In this document: one piece after another, positions 6,433-17,979 of the stretch
Position numbering within the stretch: position 1 is the first letter of the stretch
Layout of the letters: each line of letters begins with the position of its first letter
Virus record (IMG/VR): IMGVR_UViG_2526164689_000024
DNA length: 19,202 nt
Reading direction: 5' to 3' (one strand)
Source of the DNA: a virus
Taxonomy: Duplodnaviria; Heunggongvirae; Uroviricota; Caudoviricetes
Notes under the pieces: model-generated
The model's input: only the letters and a program-made list of their open reading frames with translations
Databases searched by the model: none
Told to the model about the DNA's origin: nothing
Made by a program: the position numbers and the translations under genes

Positions 6433-6530
6433 TATTTTCTCCCGCGAATTGAATATAAATTATTTTAGATTGTATTGACCTAAAAAAATTACCCTTTAAT
6501 CTAAAAATACTTAGTTTTAAGGAGGGCGAA
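6433..6530. promoter_or_regulatory. divergent immunity control region (OR-like) with PR-like promoter
   Basis: 98-bp AT-rich intergenic region between cI and cro starts; rightward -35 TTGACC (6475-6480), about 16-nt spacer, -10 TAATCT, SD AAGGAGGG before cro ATG 6531; operator-like motif 6449-6470. Confidence 0.45.
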
Positions 6531-6758
6531 ATGCGAGTTGATGAACTTGTCCAGTTTTTTGGTTCTGTCCAAAGAGTCGCTGATTTTTATGGGGTAACCC
6601 GAGAAGCTATATACATGTGGCGTAAGCGTCCCGGCGAAATAGTTCCCAAGGGGAGGGCTGCTGAAGCAGTTGCATACTCCAAGGGAAAATTATCGTTGAA
6701 CCCAGAACTTTACAAAAAGAAGGATAACACCTCGAACGAAAGGAAAAATGATTCATGA
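6531..6758 (+). CDS. cro: Cro/DicC-like small HTH regulator
   Basis: 75 aa; FFGSVQRVADFYGVTREAIYMWRKRPGEIVPKGRAAEA resembles lambda Cro and recalled DicC; strong SD; divergent from the repressor. Confidence 0.75.
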   Translation: MRVDELVQFFGSVQRVADFYGVTREAIYMWRKRPGEIVPKGRAAEAVAYSKGKLSLNPELYKKKDNTSNERKNDS

Positions 6759-7180
6759 AAATCAAGCATGAACACATCCGCATGGCGATGAATGCCTGGG
6801 CGCATCCGGACGGCGAAAAAGTACCGGCTGCGAAAATTACCAAAGCGTATTTCGAGCTGGGGATGACGTTCCCGGAACTGTACGACGACAGTCATCCGGA
6901 AGCCCTGGCCCGTAATACCCAGAAAATTTTCCGTTGGCTGGATAAAGACACCCCTGATGCTGTTGAAAAAATTCAGGCTCTGTTACCAGCGATCGAAAAG
7001 GCGATGCCGCCTTTGCTGGTGGCCCGTATGCGCAGCCACAGTTCTGAGTATTACCGTGAGATCGTCGAACGGCGGGATCGGCTGGTGAAAGATGTCGACG
7101 ATTTTGTTGCGTCAGCGGTTGTTTTGTATGACCAGATGAATCGCGGCGGCCCGGCAGGAAATGCCGTGGTGATGCACTAA
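6755..7180 (+). CDS. YdaT-like protein (proposed CII-type regulator / toxic when overexpressed in Rac)
   Basis: 141 aa; N-terminus MKIKHEHI and length match recalled Rac YdaT; start overlaps cro stop (ATGA), implying translational coupling. Confidence 0.45.
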   Translation: MKIKHEHIRMAMNAWAHPDGEKVPAAKITKAYFELGMTFPELYDDSHPEALARNTQKIFRWLDKDTPDAVEKIQALLPAIEKAMPPLLVARMRSHSSEYYREIVERRDRLVKDVDDFVASAVVLYDQMNRGGPAGNAVVMH

Positions 7181-7202
7181 CTGCACGGTGTTCGGGGGTT
7201 TT

Positions 7203-8171
7203 ATGAGCAGCAAGCTTCATGGTCTTGTCTGGGAAGGATGCGCCTTCACCGGCATGATCTTATCCCGGGTGGCAGTGATGGCCCGTCTTGCAGACTACAG
7301 CAATGACGAGGGCGTGTCATGGCCTGCTATTGAAACTATCCGGCGTCAGATCGGTGCAAGAAGTGAATCCACCGTGAAATCGGCTATTGCAGAACTGGCG
7401 AAAGAGGGCTGGCTGACGAAGGAAGAGCGTAAGGTCGGTGGGCGTAATGTAAGCAATATCTATCGGCTTAATGTGGAAAAACTCGAAGCAGCTGCGGCGG
7501 CGGCGCGTGAGTCATATAAACCGAAAAGAAAAATTAGCCCGGCAAAAAATGACCCGTTAATAGTTGACCCGTCAAATATTGACCCCTCAACGGTTGACCC
7601 GTCAAATTTTGATGGATCAACGGTTGATAAAAAACTGCCGATTAGGGGGGCGATGATTGACCCCGATCCGTCAGTATTAAAACCTGATCCGTCAGATAAA
7701 AGATCTTCTTGTCCGGACCTTTCACTGCCGGACGAAAAACAATCATCACCAGTTGAGCGATTTCTGGAGAAACACCCGGATGCGCATACCTGGAATGTAC
7801 CGAAGCGACAGTGGGGTACCCGTGAGGATGTCGCCTGTGCGCAGTGGATTTGGGGACGGGTTGTGGCGTTGTATGAACAGGCCGCCAGTGATGATGGTGA
7901 GGTGTCACGCCCCCGAGAACCTAACTGGACGACCTGGGCGAATGATGTGCGCATGATGCGTATGCTGGATGGACGTAGTCACCGGCAGATTTGTGAAATG
8001 TTTGGGCGTGTCCAGCGGGATTCGTTCTGGGTAAAAAACATCATGAGTCCGGCAAAACTCCGGGAAAAATGGGATGAACTGGTTATCCGCCTGGGGCGTT
8101 CGCCCGCGCAGCGTTGCGTGAATCACATTTCTGAACCGGACACTGAAATACCGCCTGGATTCAGGGGGTGA
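7203..8171 (+). CDS. replication initiator, lambda O-like (N-terminal wHTH, iteron-containing gene)
   Basis: ATG at 7203 (track gives an upstream GTG at 7188); N-terminal HTH-like region ...VSWPAIETIRRQIGARSESTVKSAIAELAKEGWL; gene contains an iteron array that encodes VDPSNIDPSTVDPSNFDGSTVD; followed by a DnaC-like gene. Confidence 0.7.
   Translation: MSSKLHGLVWEGCAFTGMILSRVAVMARLADYSNDEGVSWPAIETIRRQIGARSESTVKSAIAELAKEGWLTKEERKVGGRNVSNIYRLNVEKLEAAAAAARESYKPKRKISPAKNDPLIVDPSNIDPSTVDPSNFDGSTVDKKLPIRGAMIDPDPSVLKPDPSDKRSSCPDLSLPDEKQSSPVERFLEKHPDAHTWNVPKRQWGTREDVACAQWIWGRVVALYEQAASDDGEVSRPREPNWTTWANDVRMMRMLDGRSHRQICEMFGRVQRDSFWVKNIMSPAKLREKWDELVIRLGRSPAQRCVNHISEPDTEIPPGFRG
7564..7694 (+). repeat. 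replication origin-like iteron array inside the O-like gene
   Basis: TTGACCCGTCAA (7564), TTGACCCCTCAA (7579), TTGACCCGTCAA (7594), TTGATGGATCAA (7609), partial TTGATAAAAAAC (7624), all at 15-bp spacing; then an A-rich stretch and two GATCCGTCAG copies 21 bp apart (7664, 7685). Confidence 0.7.
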
Positions 8172-8177
8172 CGTGGC

Positions 8178-8924
8178 ATGAAAAACATTGCGGCAGCCGG
8201 GGTTCTTGAACGTATTCGCAGACTTGCACCACAGGGGGCGGTTCCACCGTACCGGACGGTGGAGGAGTGGCGGGAATGGCCGCTTGCTGAAGGACGAAAA
8301 CGCAGCGAGGAGATTAACCGCCAGAATCGCCAGTTGCGGGTGGAAAAAATCCTGAATCGTTCGGGCATCCAGCCTCTGCACAGCAAATGCTCGTTTGCGA
8401 ATTATCAGGTGCAGAACGACGGGCAAAAACACGCGCTGAGCCAGGCAAAATCCATCGCTGACGAACTGATGACCGGGTGCACGAATTTTGTGTTCAGCGG
8501 TAAAACCGGCACCGGGAAAAATCACCTTGCAGCGGCGATGGGCAACCGGCTGATGGCGAAGGGGAGCAGCGTGATTATCGTCACCGTGTCTGACGTCATG
8601 AGTGTGTTGCATGACAGCTACGACAACGGCCAGTCCGGGGAAAAATTTTTACAGGAGCTTTGCGGGGTTGATTTGCTGGTCCTGGATGAAATAGGCGTTC
8701 AGCGTGAGACGAAAAACGAGCAGGTGGTATTGCACCAGATAATTGATCGCCGGACAGCATCACTGTGCAGTGTCGGGATGTTAACAAACCTGAATCATGC
8801 CGCAATGAGTACGCTTCTCGGTGAGAGGATTATGGACCGCATGACCATGAACGGTGGTCGATGGGTGACGTTTAACTGGGATAGCTGGCGTCCAAATGTC
8901 AGCAATCAGAGGGTTGTGAAGTAA
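8178..8924 (+). CDS. DnaC-like helicase loader (IstB-like AAA+ ATPase)
   Basis: 248 aa; Walker A GKTGTGKNHLAAA, Walker B LLVLDEIG; directly downstream of the O-like gene. Confidence 0.8.
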   Translation: MKNIAAAGVLERIRRLAPQGAVPPYRTVEEWREWPLAEGRKRSEEINRQNRQLRVEKILNRSGIQPLHSKCSFANYQVQNDGQKHALSQAKSIADELMTGCTNFVFSGKTGTGKNHLAAAMGNRLMAKGSSVIIVTVSDVMSVLHDSYDNGQSGEKFLQELCGVDLLVLDEIGVQRETKNEQVVLHQIIDRRTASLCSVGMLTNLNHAAMSTLLGERIMDRMTMNGGRWVTFNWDSWRPNVSNQRVVK

Positions 8925-8945
8925 TTTTTGTCGGAGGACGTTTTA

Positions 8946-9671
8946 ATGGAAACCGTATTTGACGCACTGAAAGCACTGAAAAAAGCCTCTTCACAGGTAG
9001 TGGCATCGCGCCTTGGAATCAGCCGTGAAGAGGCGGTCAACGAACTGTGGAAACTGAAGCGCCGCGGTGAAGCGGATAACAAGGGGTCGATGTGGTGGCT
9101 GACTCAGGCTGGTGAAAGTGAATCGGTGTCACCGGTACCGAAAGTGACTGCGCAAATGCTGACAGAGGCGATTGAACAACATGGCCCACAAACGGCGGAT
9201 GAACTGGCACTGATGTTCGGAATTACCTCCCGCCGGGCGAATTCATCGCTGGCAATGGCAATCAGCAAAGGGCGTCTGATTCGCGTGAATCAGGGCGGTA
9301 AATTTCGTTACTGCATGCCGGGCGATAATTTACCAGCAGAGCCGGAAGCGGCATCCGCAGCGGAAACGGATGGTAAAGCCTTTCCTCAGCCAGCAGGAGT
9401 TGCGTTACCAGTCCAGGAAACGACGACACAGGAAGAAATGAAAACAGAAATCGAGGAAGACATTGTGAAATTACAGCCATCGGTCACCGAAACGAAAGCA
9501 GATGACCTGATTCTACCATCGCTGCATGTGGCTAACCGCGAACTGCGCCGGGCGAAAAGTGATGTCCAGAAGTGGGAACGAGTCTGTGCCGCGTTGCGGG
9601 AGTTGAACAAGCACCGGGATATTGTTCGGCAGATTGTCGATTCATCCGGTCGTATTGTGTCGGAAAAGTGA
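8946..9671 (+). CDS. hypothetical phage protein with two predicted winged-helix segments and a C-terminal coiled coil (DUF1627-like)
   Basis: ATG at 8946 with GGAGG 8 nt upstream (track start 8928 is TTG); 241 aa; family guess from memory. Confidence 0.5.
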
Positions 9672-9686
9672 TTGCCGGAGGCGCTT

Positions 9687-10082
9687 ATGGCGAAACCTTT
9701 TACACACGAACAGCGTGAAGAACTGAAGGCCCGAATTATCGGGTTGGTACGCAAAAATGAACGCATGACGATATCACAACTGGAGAGAGCGACGGGAGCA
9801 GGCTGGCATTCAGTCAGACGTTGCCTTGTGGATGTACTGGCTTGTGGCGATTTATACATGTCCGGTAAATACGGTGTTTTTGCATCTGAACAGGTGTATC
9901 GCGTATGGCGTAAGACACCGGAGAAAACAACTGACCAGACATTGATTCGAAAGTTACCAGACGGAGAAATACGCCGCTATGACAGGCATAAGAACATAAT
10001 TTGCTGTGAGTGCCGAAATAGCGAAGTCATGCAGCGTGTACTGGCGTTCTGTCAGGGTAATTTTCAGGAGGTGATGGAGTGA
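9687..10082 (+). CDS. hypothetical small protein, N-terminal wHTH-like
   Basis: ATG at 9687 with GGAGG upstream (track start 9672 is TTG); 131 aa; MTISQLERATGAGWHSVRRCL helix-turn-helix-like. Confidence 0.5.
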   Translation: MAKPFTHEQREELKARIIGLVRKNERMTISQLERATGAGWHSVRRCLVDVLACGDLYMSGKYGVFASEQVYRVWRKTPEKTTDQTLIRKLPDGEIRRYDRHKNIICCECRNSEVMQRVLAFCQGNFQEVME

Positions 10083-10381
10083 GGGTGAGAATTTATATCG
10101 CTGGTCCGATGACGGGATATGAAAATTTCAACCGTGATGCGTTTCACAAGGCGGAAGAAGCGCTGAAACGGGAAGGGCATACCGTTTTAAACCCGGCAGT
10201 ACTTCCGGACGGGCTGACTCAGCCACATTACATGGATATTTGCATGGCAATGATTCGTTGTGTGGATGCGGTTTACATGCTGAAAGGCTGGCAGCAGTCG
10301 GCAGGTGCAAGGGCTGAGCTGGCACTGGCGGAGAAACTGGGCCATGCGGTGATTTTTCAGGAGGTGGGCAGTGAATATTGA
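10079..10381 (+). CDS. DUF4406-like protein (nucleoside 2-deoxyribosyltransferase-like fold)
   Basis: 100 aa; IYIAGPMTG near the N-terminus and GW..S.G...E motif, typical of NDT-like Rossmann proteins; GTG start overlapping the upstream stop. Confidence 0.55.
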   Translation: MRVRIYIAGPMTGYENFNRDAFHKAEEALKREGHTVLNPAVLPDGLTQPHYMDICMAMIRCVDAVYMLKGWQQSAGARAELALAEKLGHAVIFQEVGSEY

Positions 10382-10688
10382 CCCGGCGATAACGATTGAT
10401 ATGGCCCTGAACACCGGCCTGGCGCTTCTTGGTTATTTCTACATCATGTTCTGCAGCGGACGATGGCTGTCACTGTTGTTCATGAAAAAATGGAATAAAC
10501 GCCGTAAGCAGGAGCAACGCCAGAAGGCAATGGATGCATTTTTCGAAGCCTTCGGGATTGACAGTATGGAACCAGGGGATCCAGCTCGCGCAATCAGCAG
10601 AGGGGGCGTAGTAATCCTTGTATATCGGAGTGAAGAGAAAAATGACGATCACAAGACAACGTGTAGAAGAAATCATATCCCGCATTGA
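10371..10688 (+). CDS. small membrane protein (one TM helix plus basic tail)
   Basis: GTG start with GGAGG 8 nt upstream; TM segment ALNTGLALLGYFYIMFCSGRWLSLLF; overlaps neighbours at both ends, so start and extent are uncertain. Confidence 0.35.
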   Translation: MNIDPAITIDMALNTGLALLGYFYIMFCSGRWLSLLFMKKWNKRRKQEQRQKAMDAFFEAFGIDSMEPGDPARAISRGGVVILVYRSEEKNDDHKTTCRRNHIPH

Positions 10689-10935
10689 AATGTATGGGCA
10701 TGGTGCAGGGTATACCGCAGACGAGGTTAATGATCTGGCTGTACTGGCGCTGAATTTATCAAATATCGCGAACCTGAAGCGATACGAGCTTGATATGGGA
10801 GGTTGCGACTCGTGTGGTCAGGATTGTGGCGCAGATATGACTGAAGATCCTGATGGTGATTATGTCCTGTTTGATGACGTGGTTAAGTTGTTTGAATTTG
10901 ATACAACCACTCAAAAGTTAGAAATCCCGGCATAA
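10642..10935 (+). CDS. hypothetical phage protein
   Basis: ATG at 10642 with GGAG upstream; 97 aa; acidic, contains GGCDSCGQDCG. Confidence 0.45.
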   Translation: MTITRQRVEEIISRIEMYGHGAGYTADEVNDLAVLALNLSNIANLKRYELDMGGCDSCGQDCGADMTEDPDGDYVLFDDVVKLFEFDTTTQKLEIPA

Positions 10936-10946
10936 GGAGGCTGCCA

Positions 10947-11552
10947 GTGAGCAAGATTGACTATCAGGTACTGCGTGAAAAGGCAGAAAAAGCAACGTGT
11001 GGTGAGTGGTCTCTCGAATATGGAGAGAGCCGATTTGATGGTGATGATGCACTAATTCATCGCGAGGCTGCTGGATATATTCCCATTTGCAGAATTGAAG
11101 GAGCGCATCCTGAAAGCGGTTTCGATGAAGATTTCCAAATGGAACAGCAGGCCAATGCTGAATTCATAGCAGAGGCCAATCCGGCTACTGTGCTGGTACT
11201 GCTGGATGAACTGGAAGCCGCAGAGAAGCGCAACGCAAAATTACAAAGCGAGAATGCATACATCCGCAACCGGTACAAAGAACTGGACCTATTAATCGGG
11301 AAAAACATTCTTGTCATGCAGGCTGCGATTATCGAATGGCAGGCAACTGGCGACGCTAAAAGCGGACTGGCATGGATTTATAGCACACTGTTTGGCCCAG
11401 GCGAGTTGCCGGACGAATCTGAGAAAGATGCTCAGGCCTACTTTAATCGCAAATATGCACCGATTGACGAAAAGCTTATGGCGCTTCACAAGTGGTTTTG
11501 GGAACAAAGTGAAGCCGAGCGCGCTGCTGGCATTCGCATCAAAGGAGAGTGA
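10947..11552 (+). CDS. Ead/Ea22-like family protein
   Basis: 201 aa; GTG start with AAGGAGG 6 nt upstream; NPATVLVLLDELEAAEKRNAKLQSEN coiled-coil block typical of Ead/Ea22-like prophage proteins (from memory). Confidence 0.5.
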   Translation: MSKIDYQVLREKAEKATCGEWSLEYGESRFDGDDALIHREAAGYIPICRIEGAHPESGFDEDFQMEQQANAEFIAEANPATVLVLLDELEAAEKRNAKLQSENAYIRNRYKELDLLIGKNILVMQAAIIEWQATGDAKSGLAWIYSTLFGPGELPDESEKDAQAYFNRKYAPIDEKLMALHKWFWEQSEAERAAGIRIKGE

Positions 11553-11553
11553 T

Positions 11554-11877
11554 ATGAGCGCTATTACCAAAGAGCGACTGCTGACAATCAGGCAGTGGCG
11601 CGAAACATACGTACCTGGTAGCAACGTTGTACTGCCAGCAGAAGAAGCGGAAGAACTGGCACGGATTGCTCTGGCATCGCTGGAAGCAGAACCGGTTGGT
11701 AAATTGCATGAATACAAACCAGTGGAGTATCAACGTTCGGTCTACGAGTTAACCATGCTGGTAAAGCAGTTAGCCAGGCATCTGAAGAAAGCGAAGTTGG
11801 ACTGCAAATTACCGGATAAGGCGATGGACTATCTGAAGCGAAATGGACTGATAAGTGTGGAGGATGTTTTACGATGA
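11554..11877 (+). CDS. hypothetical phage protein
   Basis: ATG at 11554 (in frame with track ORF 11311..11877) preceded by AAAGGAGAG; 107 aa. Confidence 0.45.
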   Translation: MSAITKERLLTIRQWRETYVPGSNVVLPAEEAEELARIALASLEAEPVGKLHEYKPVEYQRSVYELTMLVKQLARHLKKAKLDCKLPDKAMDYLKRNGLISVEDVLR

Positions 11878-11957
11878 ACTGGCCTGAAGCCTTTGCAATT
11901 ACAGGCGTTGCTATGGCTATCGCTTTTTTAGTATATGTTATTTGTCGGTGGGGGTAA
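11874..11957 (+). CDS. tiny hydrophobic peptide (27 aa)
   Basis: hand-translated MNWPEAFAITGVAMAIAFLVYVICRWG; ATG overlaps the upstream TGA (ATGA); GGAGG 10 nt upstream; below track length cut-off. Confidence 0.3.
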   Translation: MNWPEAFAITGVAMAIAFLVYVICRWG

Positions 11958-11992
11958 AAACGTTCGCCGGGATTAACACCAAAGGAGGGAAT

Positions 11993-12097
11993 ATGTCGGA
12001 TGATATATCACTGGCAATGGAAGGTGCGCTGGCTGTTGTTGCTGTTGTGGGCGTTTACTGCCTGGTTGTGTTTTTGATGGATCGACTAGGGAACTGA
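11993..12097 (+). CDS. tiny hydrophobic peptide (34 aa)
   Basis: hand-translated MSDDISLAMEGALAVVAVVGVYCLVVFLMDRLGN; strong SD AAAGGAGGG 4-5 nt upstream; one predicted TM helix. Confidence 0.35.
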   Translation: MSDDISLAMEGALAVVAVVGVYCLVVFLMDRLGN

Positions 12098-12105
12098 ATT
12101 CATTA

Positions 12106-12127
12106 CGATATGGGAATTCCCATATCG
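12106..12127. repeat. perfect 22-bp palindrome CGATATGGGAATTCCCATATCG
   Basis: read directly; 11-bp arms centred on GAATTC; 8 bp after the stop of the 34-aa ORF, no flanking T-run. Confidence 0.85.
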
Positions 12128-12343
12128 GGTAAAAACGGTTTGCGGTAAAGCGAGAGTTAAGTAGAATTGCTGCGGGTGCTTGAGGCTATCTGCCTCAGGC
12201 ATGAACACCAAAAGGCAGATAGAGAAAAGCCCCAGTTAACATTACGCGTCCTGCAAGACGCTTAACATTAATCTGAGGCCCAATCTATGTCTCACAAATG
12301 TAGGTTAGCCTCTTACGTGCCGAAAGGCAAGGAGAAGCAGGCT

Positions 12344-12499
12344 ATGAAGCAGCAAAAGGCGATGTTAATCGCCCTGATCGTCATCTGTTTAACCGTCATA
12401 GTGACGGCACTGGTAACGAGGAAAGACCTCTGCGAGGTACGAATCCGAACCGGCCAGACGGAGGTCGCTGTCTTCACAGCTTACGAACCTGAGGAGTAA
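12344..12499 (+). CDS. hokD: Hok/Gef-family type I toxin (HokD/RelF-like)
   Basis: 51 aa MKQQKAMLIALIVICLTVIVTALVTRKDLCEVRIRTGQTEVAVFTAYEPEE, matches recalled K-12 HokD; an in-frame upstream ATG at 12287 would give 70 aa; leader contains a 10-bp inverted repeat. Confidence 0.8.
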   Translation: MKQQKAMLIALIVICLTVIVTALVTRKDLCEVRIRTGQTEVAVFTAYEPEE

Positions 12500-12567
12500 G
12501 AGACCCGGCGGGGGAGAAATCCCTCGCCACCGCTGATGTGTCAGGCATCCTCAACGCACCCGCACTT

Positions 12568-12596
12568 AACCCGCTTCGGCGGGTTTTGTTTTTCTG
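12568..12596 (+). terminator. rho-independent terminator at hok mRNA 3' end
   Basis: AACCCGC-ttcg-GCGGGTT stem followed by TTGTTTTT. Confidence 0.7.
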
Positions 12597-12665
12597 GTCG
12601 TTCTGGTTTACAATCCATCCGTCAGCCTGAACAACTGGCACCTGCTGCGCCAGCAGAGAAAACAG

Positions 12666-12944
12666 ATGGCGCACGATACCAAATTTTACAATTCGGATAA
12701 CTCTGCCGCCCCTGCCAGCAGGCACGGGCGGCGTTCCCGCACTTTCAAATCTGACTGGTTCCAGCATCCCCCATGCACTGAAGAACAGGCCGAGTGGCTA
12801 ATTCAGTGCTACCGCAGACACGGATACGAGATTAAGAAAGCCCTCAGCCTCGATTATCGTCACTGGATAATCTCCGTCAGGCTTCCTTACTCCGAACGAC
12901 CACCGCGTCCGTCCCGCACATTCCAGCAACGCATCTGGAGGTAA
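12666..12944 (+). CDS. hypothetical small basic protein
   Basis: 92 aa from track; stop 1 nt before the GTG start of the next gene; no recognisable motif. Confidence 0.45.
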   Translation: MAHDTKFYNSDNSAAPASRHGRRSRTFKSDWFQHPPCTEEQAEWLIQCYRRHGYEIKKALSLDYRHWIISVRLPYSERPPRPSRTFQQRIWR

Positions 12945-12945
12945 C

Positions 12946-14001
12946 GTGCGGGTATTACTTCGACCTGTTCTGGTACCGGAACTCGGGCTGGTGATCGTTA
13001 AGCCGGGCCGTGAATCCATGCCGGTATTCCACAATACCCGGGTACTGGTGGAGCCGGAACCGAAAAGCATGCGTAATCTGCCGTCCGGGGTCGTTCCTGC
13101 CGTTCGCCAGCCGCTGGCGGAGGATAAATCATTACTGCCATTTTTCAGCGACGAACGAGTGATTCGTGCTGCTGGTGGCGCTGGCGCATTGTCTGACTGG
13201 TTACTGCGCCATGTTAAATCCTGCCAGTGGCCACACGGTGATTATCACCACAGTGAAACCGTCATTCACCGTTATGGTACCGGCGCAATGGTGTTGTGCT
13301 GGCACTGCGACAACCAGCTGCGCGACCAGACCTCCGAATCACTCGGGCAACTTGCTCACCAAAACCTGTCTGCATGGATGATTGACGTCATACGCCATGC
13401 AATGAATGGCTCGCAGGAACGGGAATTATCGCTGGCTGAATTATCCTGGTGGGCGGTCCGCAATCAGGTGGCGGACGCGCTACCGGAAGCGGTATTACGT
13501 CGTTCGCTGGGGTTGCGTGCGGAAAAAATCCGCTCAATGTACCGTGAAAGCGACATCGTACCGGGAGAGCAGACCGCCACCAGCATACTGAAGCAGCGCA
13601 CAAAAAATCTTGCGCCGCTGCCTCACGTCCACCAGCAAAACCCGCCACAGGAAAAGACGGTGGTCAGCATTGCCGTTGATCCGGAGTCACCGGCTCAGTA
13701 TCTCCAGCGCCAGAAACCACAACGGGAAGAGATGCCTGTATACACGCGCTGGGTAAAAACGCAGAAATGCATGACGTGCGGTAATCAGGCAGATGATCCG
13801 CATCACATCATTGGTCATGGACTGGGAGGGATGGGAACAAAGGCTGATGATTTGTTTGTTATTCCGCTGTGCCGTAAATGCCATAGCGAACTACACGCCG
13901 GGGTAAAAGATTTTGAAGAAAAACACGGCAGCCAGCTGTTGTTGCTGATTCGTTTTTTAATGCACGCGAGAAATTCGGGTGTTCTGAAGTGGAAAGCATA
14001 A
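12946..14001 (+). CDS. DUF968-like protein with C-terminal HNH-like zinc-finger motif (YdfU-like)
   Basis: 351 aa; GTG start with GGAGG 5 nt upstream; C-terminal CMTCGNQADDPHHIIGHGLGG...PLCRKCHSELH; size and position match recalled Qin YdfU. Confidence 0.6.
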   Translation: MRVLLRPVLVPELGLVIVKPGRESMPVFHNTRVLVEPEPKSMRNLPSGVVPAVRQPLAEDKSLLPFFSDERVIRAAGGAGALSDWLLRHVKSCQWPHGDYHHSETVIHRYGTGAMVLCWHCDNQLRDQTSESLGQLAHQNLSAWMIDVIRHAMNGSQERELSLAELSWWAVRNQVADALPEAVLRRSLGLRAEKIRSMYRESDIVPGEQTATSILKQRTKNLAPLPHVHQQNPPQEKTVVSIAVDPESPAQYLQRQKPQREEMPVYTRWVKTQKCMTCGNQADDPHHIIGHGLGGMGTKADDLFVIPLCRKCHSELHAGVKDFEEKHGSQLLLLIRFLMHARNSGVLKWKA

Positions 14002-14367
14002 ATGACTGAACGCATAGAATTTGTTTTGCCTTACCCGCCAACGGTGAACACTTACTGGCGTCGTCGTGGCAGCACATATTTTGTATCAAAAGCCGGGGAG
14101 CGTTATCGCCGGGCAGTGGCGCTTATTGTTCGCCAGCAGCGGCTGAAATTAAGCCTGTCCGGAAGGTTGGCAATAAAAATTATTGCAGAACCACCGGATA
14201 AGCGCCGCCGTGACCTGGACAATATCCTGAAAGCACCACTGGATGCGTTGACGCATGCCGGACTTCTCATAGACGACGAGCAGTTTGATGAAATCAATAT
14301 TGTGCGCGGTCAGCTCGTTCCTGGTGGGCGGCTGGGCGTGAAGATTTACAAAATTGAGAGTGAGTGA
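14002..14367 (+). CDS. rusA: RusA Holliday junction resolvase
   Basis: 121 aa; MTERIEFVLPYPPTVNTYW...RRRDLDNILKAPLDALTHAGLLIDDEQ is the RusA family signature; ATG abuts the upstream stop. Confidence 0.85.
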   Translation: MTERIEFVLPYPPTVNTYWRRRGSTYFVSKAGERYRRAVALIVRQQRLKLSLSGRLAIKIIAEPPDKRRRDLDNILKAPLDALTHAGLLIDDEQFDEINIVRGQLVPGGRLGVKIYKIESE

Positions 14368-14375
14368 TCGTAAAT

Positions 14376-14918
14376 ATGATATACCCGGAAATTACAGGCA
14401 AAAGCGGCGAGCATTTACGTCTAAAAACGCTGGAAGCCGTCTGGATCCAGGGGAAATTACGGATGTGGGGGCGTTGGTCGTATATAGGTGGTAGCAAAAC
14501 AGGAAATATGTTCAATCAGTTGCTGGCATCCAAAAAACTGACAAAAACCGCAATCAATGAAGCCCTGCGTAGAATCAGGGAGTCAGGGATTGATAAACCA
14601 GAGCTGGAAGCATTCTTGCGAGAGATGATCGCTGGCAGACAGAAGAGCTGGTTGTCTCACTGTACTGATGCAGAGGCGTTACGCATTGATGGGGTGATAA
14701 GTAAAGCGCTTGCACGTTATCCTGGATTGATTGATATCCTGCGGCAAAGATACGAAGGGCGGGGGATGAGTAAACGCAAAATGGCTGAATTGTTGAATGA
14801 GGTTCACCCTGAGTGGTGCTATGCAACATGCCGCAATCGTATAGATATGTGGCTGAGAATAGCTGAGTTTATTCTGTATCCACTGATGCGAGATGCATTT
14901 TCTTTTACTGACGCTTAG
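14376..14918 (+). CDS. putative late-gene antiterminator (Q-like)
   Basis: about 180 aa (ATG 14376; track GTG at 14364 overlaps rusA stop); directly after rusA and followed by a noncoding stretch ending in a strong terminator, the PR'-qut-tR' arrangement; no Q motif verified. Confidence 0.4.
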   Translation: MIYPEITGKSGEHLRLKTLEAVWIQGKLRMWGRWSYIGGSKTGNMFNQLLASKKLTKTAINEALRRIRESGIDKPELEAFLREMIAGRQKSWLSHCTDAEALRIDGVISKALARYPGLIDILRQRYEGRGMSKRKMAELLNEVHPEWCYATCRNRIDMWLRIAEFILYPLMRDAFSFTDA

Positions 14919-15083
14919 AATCTGGAGGGCGTTTGTTGTTGCACGAAGAGGATTTTTGGCTGGTAGTAAGGTTTGTGCAGTTTTAGAAAAAAAGCTTGTA
15001 TTTTTAGCCATAAACTGTTTCAATCCAGCTACGCTTCGCAAAGCTGTACCGCGAGGCGAATAGCAGACATGGACACCTGAAAG

Positions 15084-16676: not shown

Positions 16677-16752
16677 CGGCCCTTTAGCTCAGTGGTGAGA
16701 GCGAGCGACTCATAATCGCCAGGTCGCTGGTTCAAATCCAGCAAGGGCCACC
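16677..16752 (+). tRNA. tRNA-Ile2-like (anticodon CAT, probably lysidine-modified; Met cannot be excluded)
   Basis: cloverleaf parsed by hand: acceptor GGCCCTT/AAGGGCC, D-arm GCTC-AGTGGTGA-GAGC, anticodon loop CTCATAA, T-arm GCTGG-TTCAAAT-CCAGC, CCA encoded; very similar to recalled E. coli ileX. Confidence 0.8.
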
Positions 16753-16853: not shown

Positions 16854-16930
16854 GCGTTGTTAGCTCAGCCGGACAGAGCAATTGCCTTCTAAGCAATCGG
16901 TCAGTGGTTCGACTCCACTACAACGCGCCA
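16854..16930 (+). tRNA. tRNA-Arg (anticodon TCT, reads AGA/AGG)
   Basis: cloverleaf parsed by hand: acceptor GCGTTGT/ACAACGC, D-arm GCTC...GAGC, anticodon stem ATTGC/GCAAT with loop CTTCTAA, T-arm AGTGG-TTCGACT-CCACT, CCA encoded. Confidence 0.8.
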
Positions 16931-17695: not shown

Positions 17696-17862
17696 TTTTT
17701 TTGTTTGCTGTTTATTAAAAACACTTCTGCATGGTGAATCCCCCTGTGCGGAGGGGCGATCAGCAACCAGGTATATGGGATAATCGCGGATTTAGGTGCT
17801 GATACTGAATTCACCGGGAGGCACCCGGCACCATACAAGAAAAAGAATGTGCATGCAAACAT

Positions 17863-17886
17863 GCCCCTCTCCGGAGGGGCTTTTTT
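17863..17886 (+). terminator. strong rho-independent terminator
   Basis: GCCCCTC-tccg-GAGGGGC 7-bp GC-rich stem followed by T6. Confidence 0.8.
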
Positions 17887-17979
17887 ATGGGTAAAAAATG
17901 CCCGAATGGGTTCGGGCAATAGCATGAGATACTGATATTGTTGTGTTGTTATCGTGTGGATTTTAACCAGGGTTTATCA

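Follow-up and report, generated by a model that had tools for sequence, protein, structure and literature searches.

The hokW-sokW locus of Sakai prophage 5 (Sp5), from an Stx2 phage of the Sp5/933W type in Escherichia coli O157:H7, is the closest relative of the locus described here and is a functional type I toxin–antitoxin (TA) system (PMC8621323). When exactly the -10 hexamer of sokW is replaced by means of the mutagenic primers YO-421/422, the resulting 'pro-less' construct turns toxic; a sokW fragment corresponding to positions 12192-12347 of the sequence analysed below relieves this toxicity (PMC8621323, Takada et al.). On Sp5 induction, sokW RNA is removed in a RecA-dependent manner, HokW appears and phage release is increased approximately two-fold; the Northern probe used for sokW, YO-592, is homologous to positions 12266-12295 of our sequence (PMC8621323). 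In E. coli K-12, hokD is co-transcribed with relB-relE (PMC3598666), and prophage hok genes in general have already been surveyed at scale (bioRxiv 10.1101/2025.08.07.668861).

The DNA analysed here (hereafter 'the window') is a stretch of 19,202 nt from a member of the Caudoviricetes, IMG/VR virus record IMGVR_UViG_2526164689_000024. It matches E. coli O111:H11 strain 8D (NZ_CP077469.1, positions 3167143-3186346, minus strand) over its full length with three mismatches and two single-base gaps, that is 99.97% identity over the whole window; within 12100-12620 the sole difference from strain 8D is one T fewer at 12589, in the T-run of the terminator. The RefSeq gene order over the matching stretch of NZ_CP077469.1 begins with integrase, excisionase, exonuclease, dicB, a cI/Cro pair, replication genes and an ea22-like gene; continues with two tiny ORFs, hokD, a 92-aa ORF, DUF968 and RusA; and ends with a DUF1133 (Q-like) gene, a methyltransferase, tRNAs and lysis genes. 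The hok locus is positioned between the early region and the nin-like region, in the orientation of the early-right operon.

Positions 12139-12593 of the window very probably constitute a complete, canonical hok/mok/sok type I TA module of the HokD/HokW type (Table 1), and we are just as confident that an E. coli lambdoid prophage carries this locus at the start of its nin-like region. Such a module was known before, and RefSeq already annotates the toxin gene, naming the same CDS HokD (WP_000813254.1) in the matching genome; the Sok RNA and mok are without annotation in that record. The core of the original prediction is upheld: the hok/sok-type module is intact, has a coupled start of the Mok type, a leader that is structured and a terminator, and is not preceded by relBE.

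Table 1. Coordinates of the hok/mok/sok locus in the window; ends of the hok and sok transcripts are predicted by homology.
Feature	Position	Strand	Details and basis
Putative hok promoter	12139-12167	+	-10 TAGAAT 12162-12167; weak -35 TTTGCG/TTGCGG ~12139-12145; position predicted by homology
Full-length hok mRNA	12174-12593 (~419 nt)	+	5' end from R100/R1, hokB and hokC alignment and Rfam model start; 3' end from terminator
tac element GGGUGCUUGAGG	12174-12185	+	Pairs with 12549-12561 in full-length minimum free energy (MFE) structure
tac stem-loop	12175-12233	+	Inverted repeat and RF01794 consensus structure
ucb/anti-SD AAGCCCC	12227-12233	+	Within tac stem-loop
Hairpin from two TTAACATTA copies around GCGTC..GACGC	12236-12270	+	Rfam structure
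mok SD GAGG	12275-12278	+	Paired with dcb, giving Sok-target hairpin; Rfam consensus structure
mok ORF	12287-12499	+	70 aa, in frame with hok (N-terminally extended Hok); ORF list
Sok antisense RNA	12295->12219 (~77 nt)	-	Complementary to mok SD, start codon and leader
dcb GCCUC	12308-12312	+	Partner of mok SD GAGG
sok promoter	12330->12302	-	-35 TTGCCT 12330->12325; 17-nt spacer; -10 TAACCT 12307->12302
hok toxin CDS	12344-12499	+	51 aa; SD GGAG at 12331-12334
3' hairpin GGCGGGGGA-GAAA-UCCCUCGCC	12507-12528	+	9-bp GC-rich stem in MFE structure
fbi element CCUCAACGCACCC	12549-12561	+	Pairs with tac 12174-12185 in MFE structure
Intrinsic terminator of hok mRNA	12568-12593	+	Terminator scan: 7-bp stem 12568-12585, 5 GC pairs, then T-run

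The window was aligned with R100, K-12 hokB and hokC, an Sp5-type Stx2 phage and a Rac-like phage in two alignments (A1 and A2), of which A1 also covers K-12 relBE-hokD. The hok CDS of R100 is taken by us to be identical to the R1 hok sequence.

The 51-aa Hok-like toxin that had been predicted is intact. It matches Pfam HOK_GEF (PF01848) with 82.9 bits (E 1.2e-23; cut-off 22) and PHROG 251, 'MokW-like host killing', with 114.7 bits; it is identical to K-12 HokD at 51 of 51 residues and to Sp5-type HokW at 47 of 51, and has 42% identity with R1/R100 Hok. The identical HokD peptide has been reported to be toxic (bioRxiv 10.1101/2025.08.07.668861). The codon for Tyr47 of hok, TAC, lies inside a TACG (context TTACGAA, 12482-12485), which is the TadA A-to-I editing motif; in the K-12 hokD mRNA the equivalent Tyr codon is reported to be edited to Cys (PMC5630033).

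The in-frame upstream ATG, at 12287, does open a Mok-type ORF as had been proposed, and it aligns with the mok ATG of R1. It is preceded at 8 nt by a GAGG and lies within the Sok target region, so that the overlapping mok frame of the hok family is present; the mok SD of R1 is likewise GAGG (PMC9841398). The offset between mok and hok is 57 nt, and the two are in frame, in the window, the Sp5-type locus (ORF-33c) and K-12 mokC/hokC; it is 58 nt, and out of frame, in R100/R1, K-12 mokB and the Rac 442/2 copy, the difference in the last being one extra T at the position of window 12327.

The leader of the predicted hok mRNA matches the hok family model of Rfam (RF01794) over 12174-12349 on the plus strand with 121.7 bits (gathering score 59; E 9.4e-28), covering the full model from 1 to 157 and thus including the structured leader that marks this family, a tac stem with ucb followed by the mok SD/dcb hairpin. 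The 419-nt transcript folds with an MFE of -170 kcal/mol (z = -7.84), as good a fold being found in 0 of 100 shuffles; this fold and the RF01794 match together exclude chance. The putative -10 of the hok promoter is aligned with that of the R1/R100 hok promoter (TATGAT), 6 nt ahead of a conserved GG(G/C)..GCTTGAGG at the mRNA start. Within the leader, the 10-bp inverted repeat described originally (CTATCTGCCT at 12186 and AGGCAGATAG at 12213; 12186-12195/12213-12222) is present inside the tac stem-loop, where it forms the core of a longer 21-nt repeat (12175-12195/12213-12233). RF01794 pairs GGG-GCUU with AAGCCCC in addition to the inner arms, and flags no non-standard pairs in the tac stem. 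As for the direct repeat TTAACATTA, the copy at 12262 stands as given but the one placed at 12237 truly starts at 12236, one base off.

In the full-length MFE structure tac and fbi form 12 pairs with one bulge, which is the long-range fold-back of the hok family as seen in silico. A repeat finder independently returned a perfect 9-nt inverted repeat at 12171-12179/12556-12564, 376 nt apart, and the R100 control RNA showed the same tac/fbi pairing in its fold. Deleting fbi or the 3' end in silico caused the 5' end of the mRNA to refold locally; the MFE of the truncated RNA takes a local hairpin between tac and sequence downstream (the 'metastable' form), not the tac/ucb stem. The tac/ucb stem and the mok SD/dcb hairpin belong to the processed hok mRNA (PMC9841398), and the predicted active fold of the window RNA rests on the Rfam covariance model, not on energy prediction; the Rfam consensus structure, comprising this stem and hairpin, is satisfied throughout by the window leader. 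RNA folding for fbi, tac and ucb, put forward as a check on the original prediction, gave tac–fbi pairing in the MFE structure and a tac/ucb helix satisfied in the RF01794 model. The GC-rich hairpin that follows hok would be the stem-loop expected to protect the 3' end of the mRNA once processed (truncated), its position matching that of the last stem-loop in truncated R1 hok mRNA (PMC9841398). The proposed 3' terminator was recovered by the terminator scan as a stem and T-run.

A Sok-like RNA had not been identified from the sequence at first reading; it can now be located, together with its promoter, on the minus strand. The annotated K-12 sokC and sokB RNAs, when carried through A2, both land exactly on 12295->12219. 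The 77-nt Sok folds (-32.2 kcal/mol, z = -6.25) with its 5' tail left free, followed by a long hairpin and then a U-rich tail; positions 12236-12270 read on the minus strand are the Sok stem-loop/terminator, the long hairpin in the fold being followed by CUUUUCUCU. Alignment, which had been suggested as the way to look for an antisense promoter whose absence would count against the module, places the sok promoter within a segment (12300-12346) that is identical to Sp5 hokW-sokW in A1 and A2, including the sok -35, spacer and -10 and the hok SD region, and collinear with the R1 sok promoter (TTGCGC-17-TATCCT, as read from sequence). In these alignments the sok -35 and -10, the mok ATG and the SD sequences of mok and hok also fall in line with those of R100, hokB, hokC and Sp5. 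The window is thus predicted to carry a cis-encoded antisense Sok with its own promoter and terminator.

Both the hok and the sok promoter are weak matches to the sigma-70 consensus, and a sigma-70 consensus scan over 11900-12800 flagged neither of them: the hok promoter because its -35 is poor, and the sok promoter because its -10 matches consensus at only 3 of 6 positions. We rejected this miss as evidence that there is no sok promoter, and put it down to a limitation of the scan; the same hexamers work in Sp5 and line up with those of R1. Two further Rfam matches were set aside. A minus-strand match to RF01794 at 12101-12233 (19.4 bits, E 0.065) was judged to be an echo of the palindromic stems. 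A match to isrK, a Salmonella Gifsy-1 prophage sRNA, at 12508-12589 on the plus strand scored 27.2 bits against a gathering score of 50 and was not accepted as membership; it consists mostly of two hairpins and a U-tail, and may be due to chance or to a distant relationship between isrK and the hok 3' end.

The claim that no RelB/RelE-like ORFs precede the toxin was confirmed by tblastn with the K-12 RelB and RelE proteins against the whole 19.2-kb window, which found no homologue (best E 0.18 and 3.6, chance level). The relBEF arrangement of K-12 Qin, with relB and relE directly upstream of hokD, is likewise absent from the window, where the sequence upstream of 12330 is hok leader and not relE. 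The idea that RelBE is the partner to be expected beside hokD did not hold, however: it is the K-12 relBE copy that is the truncated one, and the absence of RelBE is not unusual. According to A1, K-12 hokD shares window sequence only from approximately 12330, just upstream of the hok SD, before which it has relE and relB. Of the module, K-12 hokD thus has fbi and the terminator, but neither the hok promoter with tac and ucb, nor sok with its promoter, nor the start of mok. Because the parts lost from K-12 are common to the window, R100, hokB and hokC, it is the window architecture that is ancestral and the K-12 one that is rearranged. This agrees with Pedersen & Gerdes (1999), who reportedly put the inactivation of hokD down to a major rearrangement.

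A match covering at least 80% of 12100-12620, which we counted as the full-length locus, was present in 66 phage records and in 3820 of 5426 complete E. coli genomes, where the median number of hok-like places per genome was two; the relE-hokD junction was found in 1166 of the same 5426 genomes. A distant blastn search for plasmids returned mostly P1-like or phage-plasmid copies of hokD, with short leader matches in IncF and Klebsiella plasmids, and left the interpretation as it was. The genome counts bear on the reading that takes the locus for an atypical hokD derivative deprived of RelBE, with its toxin left without normal control. Its Hok peptide is indeed that of K-12 HokD and there is no RelB/RelE gene in the window; but the normal control of a hok gene is Sok, which the window has, the full-length form is about three times commoner than the relE-hokD junction, and K-12 has relE in place of the leader found alike in the window, R100, hokB and hokC. 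We therefore regard loss of RelBE as extremely improbable by comparison with an intact hok/mok/sok module.

The mechanism by which this module would operate is that known for plasmid R1 (PMC9841398), and expression, mRNA processing and killing at the window locus are predicted on that analogy and on homology with Sp5 (PMC8621323). The weak promoter would give a stable hok mRNA of approximately 419 nt in which tac, locked to fbi, buries the mok ribosome-binding site and bars Sok binding. Slow 3' trimming would take off fbi and allow the 5' end to refold, forming the tac/ucb stem together with the mok SD/dcb hairpin; the refolded mRNA would be translatable as well as a target for Sok, with translation of Mok being required for translation of Hok, the 51-aa membrane toxin. 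Sok, an unstable antisense RNA of approximately 77 nt whose own promoter lies inside the mok region, would cover the mok SD and start codon and lead to decay of the duplex by RNase III. Should Sok synthesis stop, whether by loss of the element, a block in transcription or prophage induction, the unstable Sok would decay, Hok would be made and the inner membrane damaged.

What the prophage gains is the least certain step of this explanation. The most likely pay-off would be help with lysis and phage release on induction, by analogy with the near-identical Sp5 hokW-sokW; prophage stabilisation is possibly a further one. The tested chromosomal loci hokA, hokB and hokC do not give post-segregational killing (as cited in bioRxiv 10.1101/2025.08.07.668861), and therefore intact structure is no proof of killing on loss of the element. 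Given this silence, reported for several chromosomal hok loci, and hok and sok promoters that are weak by comparison with the consensus, the locus might be a structurally intact but physiologically silent passenger cassette, with no killing on loss or induction. We think this unlikely, since every regulatory element has been kept with no disabling change, the full-length form is maintained in so many E. coli genomes (3820 of 5426) and in many phages, and the Sp5 locus, with approximately 93.5% DNA identity, is demonstrably active (PMC8621323).

The module could instead act mainly as an anti-phage abortive-infection device that guards the lysogen, rather than as a lysis helper or stabiliser, a role in keeping with the finding that R1 hok/sok on a high-copy plasmid cut T4 plating and plaque size (cited in PMC8621323) and with the frequent carriage of defence genes by prophages (bioRxiv 10.1101/2025.08.07.668861). 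However, the same bioRxiv survey saw no enrichment of hok near defence systems, and the only experiment on a near-identical prophage locus favours release of the phage itself (PMC8621323); we consequently rate a defensive function as distinctly improbable, and retain help with lysis and phage release as the preferred role.

The genome setting suggests how such a role could be coupled to induction. hok points the same way as the early-right operon, whose genes from cro to the Q-like gene are all plus-strand (approximately 6500-15000), and therefore the sok promoter (12302-12330, minus strand) fires head-on into operon transcription. Antiterminated read-through on induction may silence sok through transcriptional interference, and may also yield 5'-extended hok transcripts that are unable to form the tac/fbi lock; sok silencing and lock-free transcripts together would turn on Hok, which would serve as an early lysis helper. 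Induction coupling of this kind, if true, would account for the rapid RecA-dependent loss of sokW RNA in Sp5 after mitomycin C.

In a comparison of three prophage-type hok loci (window, Sp5-type and Rac 442/2), positions 12280-12299 contained 11 variable positions in 20 nt, by comparison with 0-4 per 20-nt bin over the rest of the mRNA to 12559. This segment takes in the start of mok, the loop targeted by Sok and the 5' tail of Sok, and as judged from sequence its substitutions could keep co-resident prophage copies from cross-neutralising one another. We offer tentatively, as rather unlikely, a reading in which the locus is wired to induction by its orientation, with silencing of sok and 5'-extended hok RNA making Hok an early lysis helper, and, as a separate suggestion, one in which changes in the Sok 5' tail limit cross-neutralisation.

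Several features in the neighbourhood of the locus are recorded here in their own right. Two tiny hydrophobic ORFs closely precede hok in the same orientation, at 11874-11957 (27 aa) and 11993-12097 (34 aa). The 34-aa ORF has a good SD and corresponds to the RefSeq hypothetical protein WP_001278454.1; in the Sp5-type phage, hokW has a homologue of the 27-aa ORF immediately beside it. Neither ORF gave a convincing family in Pfam or PHROG. A perfect 22-bp palindrome, CGATATGGGAATTCCCATATCG (12106-12127), with an EcoRI site at its centre, lies past the stop codon of the 34-aa ORF and ahead of the hok promoter; it could serve to bind a protein or to form a hairpin in RNA. Further copies and half-sites were sought in the window: the palindrome is unique there, its half-site is not enriched and it has no flanking T-run. 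Further downstream, two prophage tRNA genes on the plus strand (16678-16750 and 16854-16927) are tRNA-Ile and tRNA-Arg in the matching RefSeq record. Beyond the Q-like and methyltransferase region, matches to two Rfam sRNAs, both above the gathering score, are placed back to back: STnc100 at 17700-17892 on the plus strand (140.3 bits) and AgvB, an anti-GcvB sRNA, at 17893-17954 on the minus strand (96.5 bits).

The significance of these findings goes little beyond correct annotation. What is added here are coordinates for Sok, mok and the mRNA elements, and the clarification that absence of RelBE is the normal state; behind the name 'HokD' it goes unnoticed that in E. coli most copies are complete hok/mok/sok modules and that the K-12 reference copy is 5'-truncated and fused to relBE. 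The locus is also a possible second test case, being closely related to hokW-sokW, which alone among prophage hok systems has been shown to act in phage release.

By comparison with known systems, Sp5 hokW-sokW resembles the window locus in being carried by a lambdoid prophage in the same orientation, in its DNA sequence (approximately 93.5% identity over 12130-12571), in its 70-aa in-frame Mok and in having a small hydrophobic ORF upstream. It differs in four C-terminal residues of HokW and in substitutions that cluster at 12280-12299 (mok start/Sok 5' tail); the Sp5 copy also diverges past approximately 12565 and is without the terminator hairpin of the window, whereas the window has the extra 34-aa ORF and the 22-bp palindrome between the small ORF and the hok promoter. 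K-12 hokD (relF), in the relBEF operon of cryptic prophage Qin, encodes an identical 51-aa toxin, has a nearly identical hok SD, 3' UTR with fbi and terminator, and is followed in Qin, as in the window, by a DUF968 gene and then a Q-like gene; however, relB-relE take the place of everything upstream of approximately 12330.

The hok/sok (parB) locus of R1/R100 corresponds to the window element for element, in tac, the tac stem, ucb, the mok SD and ATG and dcb, and equally in the position of the sok promoter, the hok SD, the 3' hairpin, fbi, the terminator and the full-length fold-back. R1 is unlike the window in its toxin (42% identity), in its mok, which is out of frame (58 nt versus 57 nt), and in being a plasmid rather than a prophage; the window Sok hairpin has a longer stem, with a 16-nt insertion relative to the Rfam consensus. 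K-12 hokC/mokC/sokC (gef) and hokB/mokB/sokB have an alignable leader and Sok RNAs that map to those of the window, and mokC is in frame with hokC as in the window, but these two loci are chromosomal and outside prophages, with shorter Sok hairpins and, in the case of hokC, an adjoining IS186.
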